Assembly (NCBI GenBank): GCA_964532175.1
Contig: CAZHGP010000002.1
Location: 18,908 to 65,209 of the forward strand
Direction of reading: 5' to 3'
Source of the DNA: an uncultured Nitrososphaeria archaeon
GTDB taxonomy: Archaea > Thermoproteota > Nitrososphaeria_A > Caldarchaeales > JAVZCJ01
DNA: 46,302 bases
The position numbers and the translations under genes are program-made. Position 1 is the first letter of the stretch. Every line of letters begins with the position of its first letter. Below the pieces are notes generated by a model. The model was not told the origin of the DNA. It ran no database searches and saw only the letters and a program-made list of their open reading frames with translations. This document shows positions 2,629 through 39,300 of the stretch, piece after piece.

Positions 2629-3455
2629 TTAACATGTTATCAACAATAGAAATTCTTAAAAATGAAATTCCTAAAAAGAAAATAAATGTATTAGATTTAG
2701 AAGGGAAAAAAGTTAAAACAATTCCTTTACCAAAAATTTTCTTAATTCCATATAGACCAGATCTTGTAAAAAGAGCTTTTCTTTTTATGCAAACATCAAA
2801 ATTTCAACCAAAAGGGGCTTCAAAATTATCAGGACATAAATATTCTGTTGAATCTCTTGGAGCTGGTTATGGAATGGCTAGAGTAGCAAGAATAAAAGGA
2901 GGAGGACCAAAAAGAATGAGTGCTGCTTTTGTTCCTTCTGCAGTAGGAGGAAGACCAACTCATCCACCAAAACCTGAGAAAAAAATAAAGAAAAGATTGA
3001 ATAAAATGGAAAAAATTTTAGCTCTTTTATCTGCAATATCAATGTCTGGAGATCCTGAAATAGTTTCAAAAAGAGGGCATAGAATAGGTAAATTGAAACT
3101 TCCAATAGTATTAACTGATGATATTCAATCTATTAAAAAATCAAGTGAGCTTAAAAAAGTACTTGAAAATATAGGATTAAAAGAAGAAATTGAAAGATGT
3201 AGTAAAAAGAATATAAGAGCTGGAAAAGGTAAAAGAAGAGGTAGAAGATATAAAAGAAGAGTAGGTCCATTAATAATTGTAGAAAAAGATGATGGAATAA
3301 TAAAAGCTGCATCAAACATTCCTGGTTTAGAAGCAATAACATTGGATAAATTAAATATATTACATTTAGCTCCTGGTGCACATCCTGTAAGATTAATAAT
3401 ATGGTCTGAATCTGCAATAAATAATATAGATAAAATGTTGGAGAAATTGAAATGA
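2625..3455 (+). CDS. rpl4: 50S ribosomal protein L4 (uL4)
   Basis: Position after L3 with a 4-nt overlap; GRPTHPPK and [12 protein letters not shown] motifs. Confidence 0.9.
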
Positions 3456-12218: not shown

Positions 12219-12307
12219 TTTGATTAAAAAATTGAAAAATAGTTTTACTTTTAATATTTAGATTTAAAATAGAATTAAAAACATTTATTAAAGCTCTTTA
12301 TTTTTTT

Positions 12308-12856
12308 ATGAGTGGAAATAGTATGGATGATAATAAAAAATGGAAAAAGAAAAAAGATTGGAATTTTGATGATATATTTGAAAATTTTGAAAAATTAACA
12401 GAATTTCTTGAAGAAGAATTTAATAGAATATTTGAAGAACCCAAATTTAATACTTTCGATAATTTTTTTAAAGAAAAACCTTTAATTTATGGTTTTAGTA
12501 TTTCAATAGATCCTACTGGAAAACCTAGAATACAAGAATTTGGAAATATTCGTTCAAAAGGAGAAAAACCATTAATAAGTGATAAAAGAGAACCTCTTAT
12601 AGATATTTTTAATAATGAAAATGAAATAATTATAATAGCTGAAATTCCTGGTGTTAAAAAAGATGATATTAAATTGAATGTAACTGAAGATAATCTTATT
12701 ATTTCTACTTCAAATTCTTATAGAAAATATTATAAAGAACTTAATTTTGAAGAAAAAATAGACCCTAATTCAATTCAATCTAGTTATAATAATGGTGTAT
12801 TACAAATAAAATTAAGAAAAAAGGGATTTGAAGGAAAGGAAATAAAAATAAGTTAA
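12308..12856 (+). CDS. Small heat-shock protein, Hsp20/alpha-crystallin family
   Basis: The alpha-crystallin domain spans PLIDIFNNENEIIIIAEIPGVKKDDIKLNV...SSYNNGVLQIKL. Confidence 0.8.
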   Translation: MSGNSMDDNKKWKKKKDWNFDDIFENFEKLTEFLEEEFNRIFEEPKFNTFDNFFKEKPLIYGFSISIDPTGKPRIQEFGNIRSKGEKPLISDKREPLIDIFNNENEIIIIAEIPGVKKDDIKLNVTEDNLIISTSNSYRKYYKELNFEEKIDPNSIQSSYNNGVLQIKLRKKGFEGKEIKIS

Positions 12857-17705: not shown

Positions 17706-17734
17706 ATACCTCATTTTTTTAAAAAAATACGAAT

Positions 17735-19858
17735 ATGTCTCAAAAACTAAAAATTTATGAACAAAGTACAGACCATAGCAATCACATAGTTTTATTAACT
17801 TTGAATGGTTTAACAAGATTAGCTGCTGACCATATCCTTCATAAAGAAATGGTAGGACATTTAGAAGAAACTATAGGGAATGTGATTCGAGCATTGAACA
17901 TTGAATTTCAAAAATCTTTAATAGATTTTAATAAAAAAGAGAATTTCTTAATTCGTGCAAGAGCTTACGATTTATTAATACAAATAGCTCTTAATCTTTA
18001 TGGATTAGAAAGTAAGATAATTGGTTTTTCTAAAAAGGAGAAAGAAAGAACTTTAAAAATAATAGAAAATGCTTTAAGAGATTGGGAATATACTGAAAAA
18101 GAAGCCTCTAAGAAATTTGGAGGAGCATTAGCTTCTAAATTTGTTATTGAAGAAAATTTATCTGAAATGAAGAAAGTAATGTCACCATCAGGTTACTTTA
18201 GAGCTCCTGGTTCTATGATATCATACATGGCAGAAAATATAGAAAAAGGATTAAAAGAAGATTCATTTTTACTTTCTTTTCTATTTGAAGCGAAAAAACA
18301 AATTGAAGAAAACATATACTATAAATTAAGTGAAAAAGGTTTTTGCAAATTTGGTAATGATTATGCTCTTGGACTTAGATGGATGAGGCATCTTGGTTTT
18401 GTTCAAGTTTCAACAAATCCTTCATTAGCTGCAATAGCTTATCTCGATGATCCAAGCCTTTGGGAAGGATATGAAGAAAAATTCTATAGTGAAAATCTTT
18501 GTAAAAGTTTTAAGAAAATAATCGAAGAATATGCTGAATTATTAGAAAATCCTGAAAAACATGGAGATGAACTTGCTGCATATGGTACTGAAGTTTCAAT
18601 ATGGCCAAATTTAGCTATTTTTAGACCAATTGCTATAAATTCAAATATGTTTCTTGGAATGGTTAGTTTACAATTGAATCCAACAATAGCTGATAGCTAT
18701 GAAAAAAGTATTGAAAATGCTTTAAAAATATATTCTGATGCGCAAGAATTTTTCAAAGAATATGATAAATATCTCCTTTGGGGATATTCTCAAAATATAG
18801 AAAGAGGTAGGCCGAATATAGTTTTTAAAGTAGCTGGTAGTTCTCCAGCCGCTATTAATATTACTTCTCATTTAGAAAGCTTAGGTATAGGAACAAATAA
18901 TACAGTAACTTTTACAGTATCGCAAGAAGTTGAATTAATATTAGCTAAAATAGAAGGAAGAGCTAAAGCTATTAAGAAAGGAATACCTTTAACAACTGTT
19001 TATGAAACGAACATGGGAGGTAGATTTGAAGATTTTATTAGAGAATATAAAGCTGAGAAATTATTAAGAAAAGCTTTAGAAAAAGTAAGCGATAAAGAAC
19101 AAGCATTAAATGATTTAGCAGAAAAATTGGGTATTGGAAAAGAAATAAAAAATATTAAATCTATTAATGAGAAAATAATAAAAATTTCAAGTCATTTAAG
19201 GCCTTTGGATATACAACCATTCATTGATTTCTTATCAAATGCTGGAGTTCCTGATGCAAAAAATCTTTCACAAATAGAGAAAGATATTAGTCAAGCAAGT
19301 ATATGCATCACAAAAAGAGTTTATGAAATATTTTTCCATCCTAAAAATAGACTTAAATGGTTAAAATATATCCAATCAAAATATGGATTAACTAAAGATC
19401 AAGCATATGAAGTATTAAAAGGTATTCATGTATTACCTGCTTCAAAAAGGAAACCAGCTGAAACTTTAGAAACACTTGCAAATGATTACATGGTACATAC
19501 AGAATTCCCAAATCATCAAAAGAATGTACTCTTAGAAAGTATGAAACCTGGTTTTAAAATTGAAAAATTAAAAAATTCTGTTCTAAAACCAATAGATCGA
19601 AGACTTATTTCTAGACTTCTTAAAGATGAGGATATAGGTGAAATTTTTAAGAGTTCTTGGGAACTTACTCCAAATTTAATAGAAAAACTTAAAGAAGCAA
19701 AGATATTAAATGCTGAGAAATATGGAACAAATGGTATTCCTCCAGAAAAATGGGCAGACTTTGGATCAACAATAAGAACGATGAATGAATTTTCAAATAG
19801 TTATGAAAAATTCAAGAAAGAATGCATTGAACATGTTATAAAATGGTTTAAAAAATAA
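17735..19858 (+). CDS. Large (707 aa) protein with a central transaldolase/Fsa-like TIM-barrel region
   Basis: VQVSTNPSLAA (TTNPSL signature), NIVFKVAGS (Schiff-base Lys position) and GIGTNNTVTFTVSQ (CNLTLLFS-like) occur in the order seen in transaldolases. About 200 aa N-terminal and about 280 aa C-terminal extensions belong to no recognised family. Confidence 0.5.
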   Translation: MSQKLKIYEQSTDHSNHIVLLTLNGLTRLAADHILHKEMVGHLEETIGNVIRALNIEFQKSLIDFNKKENFLIRARAYDLLIQIALNLYGLESKIIGFSKKEKERTLKIIENALRDWEYTEKEASKKFGGALASKFVIEENLSEMKKVMSPSGYFRAPGSMISYMAENIEKGLKEDSFLLSFLFEAKKQIEENIYYKLSEKGFCKFGNDYALGLRWMRHLGFVQVSTNPSLAAIAYLDDPSLWEGYEEKFYSENLCKSFKKIIEEYAELLENPEKHGDELAAYGTEVSIWPNLAIFRPIAINSNMFLGMVSLQLNPTIADSYEKSIENALKIYSDAQEFFKEYDKYLLWGYSQNIERGRPNIVFKVAGSSPAAINITSHLESLGIGTNNTVTFTVSQEVELILAKIEGRAKAIKKGIPLTTVYETNMGGRFEDFIREYKAEKLLRKALEKVSDKEQALNDLAEKLGIGKEIKNIKSINEKIIKISSHLRPLDIQPFIDFLSNAGVPDAKNLSQIEKDISQASICITKRVYEIFFHPKNRLKWLKYIQSKYGLTKDQAYEVLKGIHVLPASKRKPAETLETLANDYMVHTEFPNHQKNVLLESMKPGFKIEKLKNSVLKPIDRRLISRLLKDEDIGEIFKSSWELTPNLIEKLKEAKILNAEKYGTNGIPPEKWADFGSTIRTMNEFSNSYEKFKKECIEHVIKWFKK

Positions 19859-19903: not shown

Positions 19904-20011
19904 TAGCCCGGGGGAGATTCGAACTCCCGTCGATGGGTTACTCCTTATTTGATCCAGAGCCCATCATCCCTAGTCCCTTTCTAACCAGTTTGACCACTAG
20001 ACGACCGGGCT
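19904..20011 (-). tRNA. tRNA-Gln (anticodon CUG) with two introns: a 15-nt canonical 37/38 intron (19939-19953) and a ~20-nt D-loop intron (19970-19989)
   Basis: - Reverse complement starts AGCCCGG and ends CCGGGCUA, a 7-bp acceptor stem plus discriminator A.
- T arm GGGAG-UUCGAAU-CUCCC.
- Anticodon stem AUGGG/CCCAU with loop CUCUGGA after intron removal.
- D stem GUCU/GGAU. Confidence 0.85.
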
Positions 20012-20054: not shown

Positions 20055-20127
20055 TTGGCTTCTAAAAAAGTTTACAATAGTTTTATGATAATTGGCTTAT
20101 TTCTCCTAATTCTTAAAAGGTGTTTTA

Positions 20128-21063
20128 ATGAATAAAGAAAAGAAGCTTTTTTTAAAGGATCAAATTTGCCCTGAATGTGGTTCACCTTTTTTAATTAAGG
20201 ATAGTAGTACTGGAGAAGTATCTTGTCAAGAATGTGGATATGTAATTATAGAAAAAGGAGTTGATAGAGGGCCTGAATGGAGAAATTTTAATGAAGAAAG
20301 TGAAAAACGTAGCAGAGTAGGCGCTCCATTATCTATAATATATCATGATCAAGGATTATCAACAGTTATTGAAAAAATCCATAAAGATGCAAGTGGGAAG
20401 AATCTTCCAAAAGAAGTTAGAGAATCTCTTTTAAGATTAAGAAAACTTGATGTTACTTCACAAGTTAATCCATCTGAAACAAGAAATTTACAACAAGCAA
20501 TAAATATATTAGAGATTTATGCTGATAAATTACATTTATCAACTCCAGTTATTGAGAAAGCAATGCAAATATATAGAAAAGCTTTTAAAAATGGGCTTGT
20601 AAGAGGCAGGTCTATAAGAGCAATTATAGCTGCAGCAATTTATGCTGCTTGTAGAATAAATTATACTCCAAGAGATTTAAGAGAATTTGAAAAAGCATAT
20701 CCAATTGTTAAGAAAAAAGCTATAGCTCAAGGTTATAGGCTTTTAGTTAAATATCTTAATTTAAAAATTCCAGTAATAGACCCAACTATATATGTTAATA
20801 AAATTGCTTCAAAGCTTGGTTTAAGTCAAAATATTATTCAAGAAACAATTAAAATATTAAATAAAGCTGAAGAAGTTGGAGCAACAATAGGTAAAGATCC
20901 TGTAGGAATTGCAGCTGCAGCATTATACATGTCATGTCAAAAATTGCATCCAGAAATAACTCAGAAAGACATTGCTAAAGTCGCAGGAGTTACAGAAGTA
21001 ACTGTACGTAATCGTTTTAAGAATTTAAAAGATACGTTTAACTCTCACAAGATATTAATATAA
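20128..21063 (+). CDS. tfb: Transcription initiation factor TFB (TFIIB homolog), paralog 1
   Basis: Zn ribbon CPECGS...CQECG, B-reader/linker GPEWRNF...RVGAP, two cyclin-like repeats, C-terminal VTEVTVRNRFK. Confidence 0.9.
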   Translation: MNKEKKLFLKDQICPECGSPFLIKDSSTGEVSCQECGYVIIEKGVDRGPEWRNFNEESEKRSRVGAPLSIIYHDQGLSTVIEKIHKDASGKNLPKEVRESLLRLRKLDVTSQVNPSETRNLQQAINILEIYADKLHLSTPVIEKAMQIYRKAFKNGLVRGRSIRAIIAAAIYAACRINYTPRDLREFEKAYPIVKKKAIAQGYRLLVKYLNLKIPVIDPTIYVNKIASKLGLSQNIIQETIKILNKAEEVGATIGKDPVGIAAAALYMSCQKLHPEITQKDIAKVAGVTEVTVRNRFKNLKDTFNSHKILI

Positions 21064-23147: not shown

Positions 23148-24068
23148 TTAAAAAGCTACTTCTATATTCAATTTCTCGAGTAATTCTTTATATCTATTTC
23201 TAATCGTTACTTCTGTTACATGAGCAATTTCTGCTATTTCTCTTTGAGTTATATTGTAATTCAAAAGAATAGCAGCAACATATGTTGCTGCTGCAGCTAA
23301 ACTTATAGGACCTTTACCACTTGTTATTCTTGCATTTCTAGCAACATCATATATTAAATTAGCTATTTTTTCTACTTCTCCTCCTAAATTAAGATTATTT
23401 ACAAAACGTGAAATATACAATCTTACATCTGAAAGATTTGATGAAATATTTAATGAACGTATCATTAATCTATAACACTTCCCAACTTCCTTCTTAGAAA
23501 CATTTGCAGCCTTTGATACTTCTGAAAGTAATCTAACAATATTACATTGTTTACAAGAGAGATAAAGTGCTGCTGCAGCTATTCCTTTTAATGATCTAGC
23601 ACGTGGCATATTACTTCTGAATATTTTTCTAACATACATTGAAGCTGTTTCTATAACACTATTTGGCAGTCCTAAAGCCGCTCCTATTATATTTAATTCA
23701 TGTAAAATTTTAGATAATGCTCTGCTTTCACTATCCATTATTTTAGTTCTTTTATCCCATTTATCTAATAATTTAACATTCTCGACTTGTTCTTTACTTG
23801 AAATTTTTCCATTATAAACACCAATTTTTGTTGATAATCCTTTATCATGTATAGAAAGTGTGACAGGAGCACCAACACGTACTCTTAATTTATCTTTTTC
23901 TCCTTCAAAATTGTGCCACTCAGGACCAAAATCATAAGTTTTTTGAACTATTACTACACCACAATCTTTACAAGATACCTCACCAGTTCTAGAATCTATT
24001 AAGAGATTTATACTGCCACATTCTGGGCAACGAGTAATAGTTTCATCTAATGAAGTTTTACGAGGCAT
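23148..24068 (-). CDS. tfb: Transcription initiation factor TFB (TFIIB homolog), paralog 2
   Basis: Zn ribbon CPECGS...CKDCG, GPEWHNF...RVGAP, cyclin repeats, VTEVTIRNRYK. Confidence 0.9.
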   Translation of the reverse strand: MPRKTSLDETITRCPECGSINLLIDSRTGEVSCKDCGVVIVQKTYDFGPEWHNFEGEKDKLRVRVGAPVTLSIHDKGLSTKIGVYNGKISSKEQVENVKLLDKWDKRTKIMDSESRALSKILHELNIIGAALGLPNSVIETASMYVRKIFRSNMPRARSLKGIAAAALYLSCKQCNIVRLLSEVSKAANVSKKEVGKCYRLMIRSLNISSNLSDVRLYISRFVNNLNLGGEVEKIANLIYDVARNARITSGKGPISLAAAATYVAAILLNYNITQREIAEIAHVTEVTIRNRYKELLEKLNIEVAF

Positions 24069-24072
24069 TTTT

Positions 24073-24321
24073 TCACTCCTTTAAATAAACTTTTATAATT
24101 TTTGATAATAATTCTTCTTCATTAACTTTAATTTCTGCAAATGGAGAAGAAATAGGACCAAAAATATTTGAAATATATCCTATTTCATGCATTTCATCAT
24201 TAAATACTTTTTGTCCTAATTTAGGTATTTTTACATTATTATCAATTTTGACTATAATACTTTTAGTTGCTTTAATATAATGAAAAACACTCCCTAGCTT
24301 AATAATGTTATTAAGCATCAA
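24073..24321 (-). CDS. gar1: H/ACA RNP protein Gar1
   Basis: 82 aa; LGSVFHY...PKLGQKVF...IGYISNIFGPISSPFAEIKV matches the Gar1 core. Sits upstream of tfb as in many archaea. Confidence 0.75.
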   Translation of the reverse strand: MMLNNIIKLGSVFHYIKATKSIIVKIDNNVKIPKLGQKVFNDEMHEIGYISNIFGPISSPFAEIKVNEEELLSKIIKVYLKE

Positions 24322-38609: not shown

Positions 38610-38622
38610 GAAGGTGCTTTTT

Positions 38623-39300
38623 ATGAAAAAAATTTTAGGAATAGATGAGGCTGGTAGAAAATAGCAATTATATTGCTATTTGTCAAAAGGGCCAGTAATA
38701 GGACCTATGGTAGTATGTGGCTTCTTAATTGAAGAGAGTAAAATAGAAAAATTAAAAGAAATTGGCGTTAAGGATTCAAAATTACTTTCATCTATTAAAA
38801 GAAAGAGAATAGCGTTAATATTAAAAAGAATTGCGAAAAATATTGTTTTAATAAAAATTTCTGCAAATGAAATTGATCGATTAAGGAAAAAAATTAATTT
38901 AAATGAAATAGAAATAAATAAAATTAGTGAAATAATAAACTCTCTTTCTCCAAATATTGTAATTATAGATTCTCCTGAAGTTAATACAAAAAAATTTATA
39001 AATAAAATAAAAAAGAAATTGAAAAATAAAAATATAAGAATAATTGCTGAAAATTATGCTGATAGAAAATATCCAATAGTTAGTGCTGCTTCAATATTAG
39101 CAAAAGTTGAAAGAGATAAAGAAATTGAAAAAATTAAAAAAAGAATTGGTTACGATTTTGGCTCTGGTTATGCTAGTGATAAAAAAACAATAAATTTTCT
39201 TAAATATTGGTTAAAGAATCATAAAGAACTTCCAAATTTTGTTAGAAAAAGTTGGATAACTGTAAAATTGTTGAGTAAAGAAAATATAAAAAGAAAATAA
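38623..39300 (+). CDS. rnhB: Ribonuclease HII, interrupted by a 30-nt insert (exon 1 38623-38657, exon 2 38688-39300 after predicted splicing)
   Basis: ATG at 38623 after SD aaggtg gives MKKILGIDEAGRK, then TAG at 38662. The same frame resumes as ...GPVIGPMVV...DSKLL...VSAASILAKVERD...GSGYASD...VRKSWIT. Removing 38658-38687 yields the canonical GIDEAGRGPVIGP. Confidence 0.8.
38658..38687 (+). other. Candidate bulge-helix-bulge (BHB) intron within the rnhB mRNA
   Basis: - 10-bp inner helix 38659-38668 / 38672-38681.
- 4-bp central helix 38652-38655 (UGGU) / 38682-38685 (GUCA).
- 3-nt bulges 38656-38658 (AGA) and 38686-38688 (AAA).
- Closing pair C38651-G38689. Confidence 0.6.

Follow-up and report, generated by a model that had tools for sequence, protein, structure and literature searches.

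The stretch of DNA analysed here (hereafter the window) comprises 46,302 nt of an uncultured Nitrososphaeria archaeon (assembly GCA_964532175.1, contig CAZHGP010000002.1, positions 18,908-65,209; ~25% GC) and carries an interrupted rnhB, the gene for ribonuclease (RNase) HII. Its reading frame opens with the ATG at 38623, behind a Shine-Dalgarno (SD)-like motif whose equivalent in relatives reads GGTG or AAGGTG. The frame encodes MKKILGIDEAGR (read as MKKILGIDEAGRK) and then meets a TAG at 38662-38664. Beyond this stop, the same frame resumes as QLYCYLSK-GPVIGPMVV (QLYCYLSKGPVIGPMVV...) and ends with the TAA at 39298-39300, so that exactly 10 surplus codons stand between R and G of the DEAGRG motif. 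The sole open reading frame (ORF) called mechanically at this locus starts from the TTG at 38680 and spans 206 aa. Alignment to RNase HII structures places this start downstream of the catalytic Asp-Glu. An initial annotation of the window had described the SD motif, the start, the stop, the continuation in the same frame, the surplus codons and the truncated ORF, and re-reading of the sequence bears out each of them.

In-silico deletion of 38658-38687 yields a 215-aa protein that matches the Pfam profile RNase_HII (PF01351) over positions 1-199 of 199 (E=5e-54), and the full-length match is obtained only with the insert removed. The spliced protein is colinear with the solved archaeal RNase HII structures 1EKE (E=2e-49), 1UAX and 1IO2, with no gap at the junction; the structure alignment starts at residue 3-4, and M. 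jannaschii 1EKE reads IIGIDEAGRGPVLGPMVVCAF. Removal of the 30 nt thus restores the canonical G-R-G-P in frame, as had been predicted. From the comparison of homologous loci, we consider that the 30 nt at 38658-38687 are very probably an archaeal bulge-helix-bulge (BHB) intron of the tRNA-splicing type in the rnhB mRNA. The features of the locus are collected in Table 1.

Table 1. Features of the interrupted rnhB gene and of its predicted intron, in window coordinates.
Feature	Position	Strand	Remarks
GGTG, Shine-Dalgarno-like motif	38613..38616	+	6 nt 5' of exon-1 ATG; read from sequence
rnhB exon 1	38623..38657	+	M K K I L G I D E A G plus AG (Arg codon bases 1-2); holds the catalytic Asp-Glu
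Outer helix (h), pair C38651-G38689, 5' member	38651	+	sole h pair fitting a 3-nt bulge
Central helix (H), 5' strand UGGU (exon)	38652..38655	+	partner 38682-38685
5' bulge AGA, 3 nt	38656..38658	+	predicted cut 38657/38658
Predicted BHB-type intron, 30 nt	38658..38687	+	excision restores GIDEAGRGPVIGP and full-length RNase HII
Inner helix (h'), perfect 10-bp hairpin AAAUAGCAAU / AUUGCUAUUU, loop UAU	38659..38681 (arms 38659-68/38672-81)	+	
In-frame TAG stop	38662..38664	+	2nd full codon after the 5' splice site; unspliced translation would end after 13 residues
Central helix (H), 3' strand GUCA (intron)	38682..38685	+	relatives: GCCA, GCUA, GUUA, ACCA, GCCU, UCCU
3' bulge AAA, 3 nt	38686..38688	+	predicted cut 38687/38688; base 3 ends the Arg codon
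rnhB exon 2	38688..39300	+	first A completes AGA (Arg); GPVIGPMVV...; TAA 39298-39300

In the window, the insert and its borders can form a BHB core, AGA / UGGU:GUCA / AAA, in which a 4-bp central helix (H) lies between two 3-nt bulges. The possible pairs of H are U38652-A38685, G38653-C38684, G38654-U38683 and U38655-G38682. The hairpin, these four pairs, both bulges and the closing C-G pair of the outer helix (h), which the initial annotation had drawn by hand, are all present or possible in the sequence. The pair C38651-G38689 is invariant because codons fix both of its bases (GCN and GGN), and its conservation therefore gives no covariation information. The 3' bulge takes the forms AUA, ACA, ACG, AGG, UAA and GUA in relatives. 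A second copy of the hairpin sequence was not found in the window, where it is unique; its origin from a miniature inverted-repeat transposable element or another repeat was ruled out on this ground. An Rfam scan of the window at the gathering threshold returned tRNA only and no other RNA family, and this result, together with the insert size of 30 nt, ruled out a self-splicing group I/II intron or a curated RNA family.

The insert is widespread in other archaea. A protein search with the spliced query gave 13 closest relatives (74-100% identical), almost all of them N-terminally truncated gene calls, whose source name, where given, is "Nitrososphaerota archaeon" (NCBI). Their DNA was retrieved protein by protein and has the insert at the same site. 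Sources of these close relatives include the JGI samples 3300042910 (513-kb contig Ga0453288_0049), 3300045873, 3300045887 and 3300045900 and the hot-spring MAGs GCA_038817485.1, GCA_038863925.1 and GCA_038850765.1. In L001, the insert is 28 nt long, has lost one apical base pair and leaves the exons in different frames. When genomes and metagenomes were scanned with the spliced sequence, no member of the close clade and only relatives at <=57% identity emerged; of 160 more distant rnhB loci scanned, ~30 are interrupted at DEAGR↓G (the arrow marks the insertion or cutting site throughout). Most of these are Asgard metagenome-assembled genomes (MAGs) labelled Promethearchaeota, Hodarchaeota or Odinarchaeota, and the complete Asgard chromosome CP070805 is also among the carriers. 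A relaxed motif, in which the Arg/Lys codon was not required, recovered the split-codon cases L027 (Woesearchaeota MAG, 38 nt) and L008 (Aenigmatarchaeota MAG, 40 nt) and also L084. In total, 47 rnhB loci with 33 distinct sequences have the insert, always at one codon boundary, between Arg and Gly of DEAGRG, with lengths of 28, 29, 30, 38 or 40 nt. The carriers belong to at least four archaeal lineages, namely the window's clade, many Asgard MAGs, one Aenigmatarchaeota MAG and Woesearchaeota-like contigs. Uninterrupted genes comprise 96 loci that matched the strict motif and ~29 more with the variant motifs DDAGRG, EEAGRG or ADEAGRG.

These inserts share a common layout, in which exon ...C-UGGU is followed by a 3-nt bulge (AGA), a 21-33-nt hairpin, a 4-nt segment, a second 3-nt bulge (mostly AAA) and exon GG.... 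The hairpin arms are unrelated between clades and always pair (AAAUAGCAA/UUGCUAUUU, AAUUC/GAAUU, AAUCC/GGAUU, AGGCUUUGA/UCAAGGCCU, GAUUAAUA/UAUUAAUC). The 4-nt intron segment always complements its own exon strand: exon UGGU goes with GUCA, GCCA, GCUA, GUUA or ACCA, exon UGGC with G-initial variants and never with ACCA, AGGU with GCCU in L152, and GGGA with UCCU in L027. The combinations of H are thus UGGU/RYYA, UGGC/GYYA, AGGU/GCCU and GGGA/UCCU. We quantified the pairing in two alignments, A1 with 31 sequences and A2 with 33 sequences and trimmed hairpin loops, with H counted over 30 distinct rows. Paired cells made up 87.3% of A1 and 90.4% of A2, against 74.2% and 75.2% in shuffles, none of which came as high as the observed value (0/500 for each alignment), and 30-46% and 31-47% with slid partners. 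Twelve pairs are altered on both sides in A1, and 12 in A2. The central helix is paired in 97.5% of cells in both alignments, with one of its four pairs (A1) or two of four (A2) altered on both sides, and every pair of the inner helix is altered on both sides across clades. The bulge-helix-bulge spacing does not vary with insert length (28-40 nt). The outer helix covaries weakly (80% paired in A2, 2/4 pairs invariant); longer exon-exon outer helices occur in Asgard, L171, L083 and L027. An alignment of rnhB loci across related genomes, which the initial annotation had named as a check on its BHB interpretation, thus finds the insert present and covarying in relatives, and that interpretation is supported by conservation and covariation in 33 distinct sequences.

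Folding energies agree with this architecture in several relatives. The BHB fold is the minimum free energy (MFE) structure or <=0.2 kcal/mol off in L027 (-33.7), L104, L113, L125, L152, L163, L171 and L172. L163 is 87% identical to the window, and its two conformers, in which UGGU pairs with exon 2 or with the intron, are near iso-energetic (-17.4 vs -16.7). In many intron-bearing Asgard genes labelled Promethearchaeota or Odinarchaeota, GRG-P is replaced by GRG-S-VLGP (GGC UCU GUC) at the start of exon 2 (L009, L032, L037, L053, L064, L065, L074, L103, L108, L110 and L146). The Ser codon of these genes allows the outer helix to gain one A-U pair and to lengthen (GACGAGGC / GGCUCUGUC). Selection for RNA structure may have replaced a residue next to the active site of the RNase HII of these Asgard archaea.

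The exon codons next to the insert are constrained. In the 31 distinct sequences with an intron, substitutions in the seven codons that precede the insert are all synonymous (GGT/GGG/GGA/GGC, ATT/ATA/ATC, GAC/GAT) apart from a single change of Ala to Ser in L083, and the Asgard genes have a conserved 28-residue exon 1 with an Asgard-specific N-terminus. Since exon-1 codons vary synonymously only, exon 1 is translated. On the other hand, the codons within the helix and the bulge are frozen in intron-bearing genes: GCT in 29/31, GGT in 26/31 and AGA in 30/31. Among 93 distinct intact genes, Asgard included, Ala is encoded by GCT (31), GCA (22), GCC (21) or GCG (18), Gly by GGA (40), GGT (27), GGC (20) or GGG (6), and Arg by AGA (48), AGG (23) or CGN (20). 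All 31 inserts checked hold an in-frame stop (TAA in 23, TAG in 7, TGA in 1), usually as the 2nd codon, and some hold two.

Two split-codon cases fix the position of the cuts. In most sequences, the A↓A ambiguity allows two equivalent 30-nt deletions. The junctions of L027 (GGA AG↓U ... AU↓A GGC) and L008 (GGC AG↓U ... AA↓A GGA) are decisive, because both genomes read AGU (Ser) at this codon, and AGA (Arg) is re-formed only if the cut follows the 2nd bulge nucleotide. The initial annotation had placed the cuts by this very rule, and the invariant Arg of both genes is regained by no other. It had calibrated the rule on the 37/38 intron of a tRNA-Gln in the window, and this calibration proved sound: the tRNA-Gln(CUG) at 19904-20011 on the minus strand is a real tRNA of 108 nt with two insertions (Rfam), and its canonical 15-nt intron at 37/38 (H = CUCU/GGAG, bulges GG↓A and UA↓A) obeys the cut after the 2nd bulge nucleotide. 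ARAGORN with default settings reports no tRNA in the window and finds a complete tRNA only once both insertions are removed. The D-loop of this tRNA-Gln has an extra 16-18 nt, for which the best BHB-like candidate is UCUA GUG...UAGA AAG in the relaxed HBh' form. Since the tRNA-Gln needs this non-canonical excision from its D-loop, a splicing endonuclease of broad specificity is implied, and the second insertion suggests that the host enzyme is permissive. Relaxed BHB motifs reportedly need an (alpha-beta)2 or epsilon2 type of the tRNA-splicing endonuclease EndA, and Asgard archaea are reported to have a broad-specificity (alpha-beta)2 EndA with an L1 loop (PMC5829648).

On the basis of these data, we propose the following course of splicing, whose events and enzymes we infer from the sequences. 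Exon UGGU would pair with intron GUCA to form the 4-bp central helix with the bulges AGA and AAA on either side, while the 10-bp intron hairpin would serve as the inner helix and a weak exon-exon outer helix would complete the relaxed motif. EndA would then cleave two nucleotides into either bulge, at 38657/38658 and 38687/38688, and the exons would be joined by an RtcB-type ligase to GGU AG↓A GGG CCA (junction ...GCUGGUAG↓AGGGCCAGU...). The ligated mRNA would encode the restored GIDEAGRGP and the 215-aa enzyme, with ILGIDEAGRGPVIGPMVVCGF as the peptide over the junction, and the unspliced mRNA would give a 13-residue peptide only, owing to the TAG in the intron.

Several observations weigh against this proposal and concern mainly the window itself. 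ViennaRNA gave an MFE of -15.7 kcal/mol (z = -2.66) for the 61-nt region. The exact hand fold of the initial annotation amounts to -3.7 kcal/mol and the hairpin alone to -8.5; its pairs are possible, and as an energy structure it is not the MFE. In the MFE structure, exon-1 GCUGGU (38650-55) pairs with exon-2 GCCAGU (38691-96), leaving a 9-nt 3' loop. With longer flanks and at 37 °C, the best BHB-constrained conformer is less stable than the MFE by 4.9 kcal/mol, and at 70 °C the BHB conformer of the window has a positive free energy. Since the hand fold is unfavourable in isolation, we do not rely on thermodynamics. With 3-nt bulges, the outer helix of the window consists of C38651-G38689 only, or of GGC/GCC if the 3' bulge is 5 nt. 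Because this helix is weak, the motif is a relaxed BHB; the initial annotation had counted one pair, which holds for the window, and the helix is stronger in other clades. The window has three perfect 10-bp hairpins against 0-9 in shuffles, which is not significant. A generic BHB scan, which the initial annotation had recommended, proved unspecific in DNA of 25% GC, with 131 motifs in the window vs 65-93 in shuffles. The window sequence on its own does not exceed chance, and the comparison with other genomes does.

Further points on the same side concern the wider data. Pfam annotation of 40 ORFs of the 46-kb window revealed no EndA, no RtcB and no other split gene. Ten exact spliced proteins are absent from a 15-billion-protein collection, a result that is uninformative for splicing, and protein searches, Asgard included, gave no near-identical intron-less counterpart that could stem from a spliced transcript. 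Many Asgard sequences are akin to each other, so that cell counts overstate the number of independent events; the independent support comes from hairpins of roughly five unrelated families and from the four different pairings of exon and intron strands in H. Exon-2 GCCA was also seen to rival intron GUCA for the same UGGU in the window. This competing pairing could be a switch between splice-competent and splice-incompetent forms, or mere complementarity of Gly and Pro codons.

The stop could also be passed at the level of translation. In T4 gene 60, where ribosomes bypass a stretch of the message, a stop right after the take-off codon is combined with a hairpin and a matching landing codon downstream. 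The same arrangement (AAA/AAA codons, a stop right after take-off and a hairpin) is seen in the window and in its four closest distinct relatives, so that programmed bypassing would start at AAA 38659-61, skip 27 nt and land on AAA 38686-88 to give GIDEAGRKGPVIGP. However, this likeness is confined to the window's close clade, and the codon match is not conserved elsewhere: take-off and landing codons agree in 6 of 31 distinct sequences and differ in L083, L171, L172, L152 and nearly all Asgard genes. Bypassing would insert an extra Lys (GRKGP) within the invariant DEAGRGP and so break the motif, and the AGU codons of L027 and L008 would yield Ser, not Arg. It also leaves unexplained why synonymous sites are frozen ahead of the take-off codon and why the 4-bp exon-intron helix covaries, as expected of an RNA-processing substrate and not of a ribosome signal. 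We regard bypassing as very improbable. Translation of the insert as a 10-residue loop that the protein tolerates, by readthrough of the stop or recoding of TAG, would account for the database protein P0009, which reads GRKQQVYCYLSKGP across the insert. The locus of P0009 (L002 555-1226), however, has a TAG and does not translate to P0009; its 'Q' comes from the alternative code of a gene caller, and we rejected P0009 as a readthrough protein on account of this artefact. Since TAG closes ~5 ordinary long ORFs in the window and is their normal terminator, recoding is not indicated. With insert lengths of 28, 29, 38 and 40 nt, the exons of some relatives fall into different frames, which excludes a translational reading of the insert, and the stops may be TAA, TAG or TGA, sometimes two per insert. 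The probability left to readthrough is close to nil.

A decayed gene, or a truncated pseudo-enzyme made from the TTG at 38680 (in Asgard, from an ATG inside the insert) after insertion of a small palindromic element, would fit the gene calls, since gene callers and NCBI present a 193-213-aa 'ribonuclease HII' that starts after the insert, and the hairpin resembles such an element. The hairpin is not repeated in the window, however, and the insert itself is under structural selection. Exon 1 has changed only synonymously in four lineages, including the 28-residue Asgard N-terminus. The SD motif precedes exon 1 and not the TTG, the product from the TTG is devoid of the catalytic Asp-Glu, and the homologues in the protein searches include no close intact paralogue. 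Loss of function at this locus thus seems hardly credible. Removal of the insert from RNA by a nuclease and a ligase other than EndA and RtcB, or a mainly regulatory or stability element with few transcripts repaired, would suit the weak outer helix of the window, where the BHB conformer is not the MFE. Against it stands the geometry of a 4-bp helix between two 3-nt bulges, each cut 2 nt into the bulge, which defines an EndA substrate and holds at insert lengths of 28-40 nt, and the same rule fits the tRNA-Gln intron of the window and cbf5 introns (PMC2738675). We consider this alternative improbable. The preferred reading thus remains a BHB intron that would be spliced by EndA and RtcB.

The pre-mRNA of cbf5 in Crenarchaeota (Desulfurococcales and Sulfolobales) reportedly contains an intron of this kind (Watanabe 2002, Yoshinari 2006, Yokobori 2009). 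The rnhB insert resembles it in its relaxed BHB, the same cut rule, a patchy, lineage-specific presence or absence and failed gene prediction. The cbf5 introns are cut between the 2nd and 3rd bulge residues and lie within the catalytic Asp codon (PMC2738675, Yokobori 2009); likewise, the rnhB intron falls inside a catalytic motif, in the Arg codon of DEAGRG. Unlike cbf5, which encodes a pseudouridine synthase, rnhB encodes RNase HII, and its intron has a much wider host range, with Asgard, Aenigmatarchaeota, Woesearchaeota-like contigs and a clade labelled Nitrososphaerota (NCBI). Splicing of cbf5 was shown experimentally, whereas that of rnhB is deduced from comparative sequence data. The rnhB intron also has the geometry and the cut rule of archaeal tRNA introns (hBHBh' and relaxed HBh'/hBH), and its 28-40 nt are within their range of 11-175 nt (PMC2738675). 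It differs from them in residing in an mRNA, in the codon constraint on the exon strand of H, and in an outer helix that forms between exons within the coding sequence and is not the anticodon stem.

A second archaeal mRNA, HVO_1309 of Haloferax volcanii, is cut by EndA at a BHB and appears spliced in RNA-seq, according to the account of Schwarz 2020 given in PMC10485636. As far as this account goes, HVO_1309 parallels the rnhB proposal in being an archaeal mRNA with a BHB and a splicing endonuclease, and it differs in belonging to one euryarchaeon with an alpha2-type enzyme and in not being rnhB. The initial annotation had rightly cited cbf5 as precedent and had overlooked HVO_1309 as a second case when it called cbf5 essentially the sole one. 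In reviews and primary papers up to 2025, the only EndA-spliced archaeal mRNAs named are cbf5 (Crenarchaeota) and HVO_1309 (Haloferax), and a 2023 review expects that more archaeal spliced mRNAs "remain to be discovered" (PMC10485636). Full-text literature searches gave no paper linking RNase HII or rnhB with BHB or EndA; most subscription journals were outside their scope, and an earlier description is possible. The statement of the initial annotation that no rnhB case was known agrees with these searches, the 2023 review and a 2025 paper.

In the non-spliceosomal splicing of HAC1/XBP1 mRNA in eukaryotes, a short intron is excised at stem-loops by a protein, IRE1, the ends are joined by a tRNA-ligase-type reaction, and the frame depends on splicing. 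RtcB has a role in HAC1/XBP1-type splicing (PMC8718801). These systems differ from rnhB in that IRE1, not EndA/TSEN, is the nuclease and the cleavage motifs are others; a regulatory role is established for HAC1/XBP1 and purely speculative for rnhB. By analogy, the competing UGGU/GCCA conformer of the window could make RNase HII output depend on EndA/RtcB.

The distribution of the intron is patchy. In a neighbour-joining tree of the spliced proteins, the intron appears in three places. All members of the window's clade carry it, including L171, L172 and L083 (~50-65% identity), and the sisters of this clade are intact Aenigmatarchaeota-type genes. It is also present in one Woesearchaeota-like sequence (L152), and within Asgard, intron-bearing genes are scattered among intact ones. 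Together with L008 and L027, this distribution indicates either an ancient intron that was lost many times or a single site that was invaded repeatedly. We tentatively entertain the rather unlikely idea that the N-terminal catalytic motif is a recurrent landing site for mobile BHB introns whose splicing would gate RNase HII synthesis. The filling of the same rnhB site by unrelated hairpins in at least four distant lineages points in this direction, and the in-frame stop kept in the inserts is consistent with splicing being required before translation. The metagenome contig L084 (Ga0080004_1153281) has a different rnhB mini-intron at ~3003-3017, whose 15 nt (AUCUUUUGACGUCAA) separate the Glu codon from the Ala codon in GIDE↓AGRG and precede the main site by 6 nt. 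An in-frame TGA occurs in it, its BHB core is perfect (H = GACG/CGUC, bulges AA↓A and AA↓G), and its geometry is that of the 15-nt tRNA-Gln intron of the window. L027 (WJKY01000069.1, 1633-2740) has a relic exon 1 and an intron-like segment (MIICGIDEAG; UGGC AAG ... GCCA UAA) with no exon 2, upstream of its functional intron-bearing rnhB. The relic is followed by a 337-aa ORF (1727-2740) with a TrmB-type winged helix, whose match to LAGLIDADG_3 is weak (E=0.0026) and falls short of the Pfam cut-off. The stop of this ORF overlaps the start of the functional rnhB. The relic and the ORF could be a trace of DNA-level mobility or homing, by analogy with archaeal rRNA introns. The second intron in L084 and the relic in L027 suggest that the rnhB catalytic motif is intron-prone.

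The interrupted genes are consistently mis-annotated. Among the top 120 Asgard protein matches, more than half are 'ribonuclease HII' entries of 213 aa whose called start is an ATG of the insert, so that they are without exon 1 (28 residues) and its catalytic Asp-Glu. This mis-annotation is widespread, and the calls of the window's clade (193-206 aa) show the same truncation. Asgard inserts often hold such an ATG (..UAUAUGUUAAAA↓GG..), for example, in L065 (CP070805.1) at 3027-3056 and for proteins P0121-P0136. Hundreds of public "ribonuclease HII" entries start inside or after the intron, without the catalytic residues. Gene callers silently shorten BHB-interrupted genes, and further such genes may be hidden. 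If the proposal is true, rnhB would be the third archaeal mRNA spliced by the tRNA machinery, after cbf5 and HVO_1309, and by far the most widely distributed case. On present evidence, it would also be the first one from DPANN-type lineages and from Asgard archaea, to which eukaryotes are most closely related. The rnhB intron would provide a compact, conserved natural substrate for studies of relaxed-BHB recognition and would allow asking if protein-gene splicing by EndA/RtcB is regulatory.

Other parts of the window have features of their own. An Hsp20/alpha-crystallin ORF (12236-12856, +; E=3e-10) lies between the genes for L30 and L15, an unusual place within a ribosomal-protein cluster. 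The sole Pfam match of a 711-aa ORF (17723-19858, +) is a weak, partial one to transaldolase/FSA (residues 227-408, profile 21-151 of 285). Two TFIIB/TFB paralogues (20110-21063, +; 23148-24080, -) are located <3 kb apart and adjoin the intron-containing tRNA-Gln.

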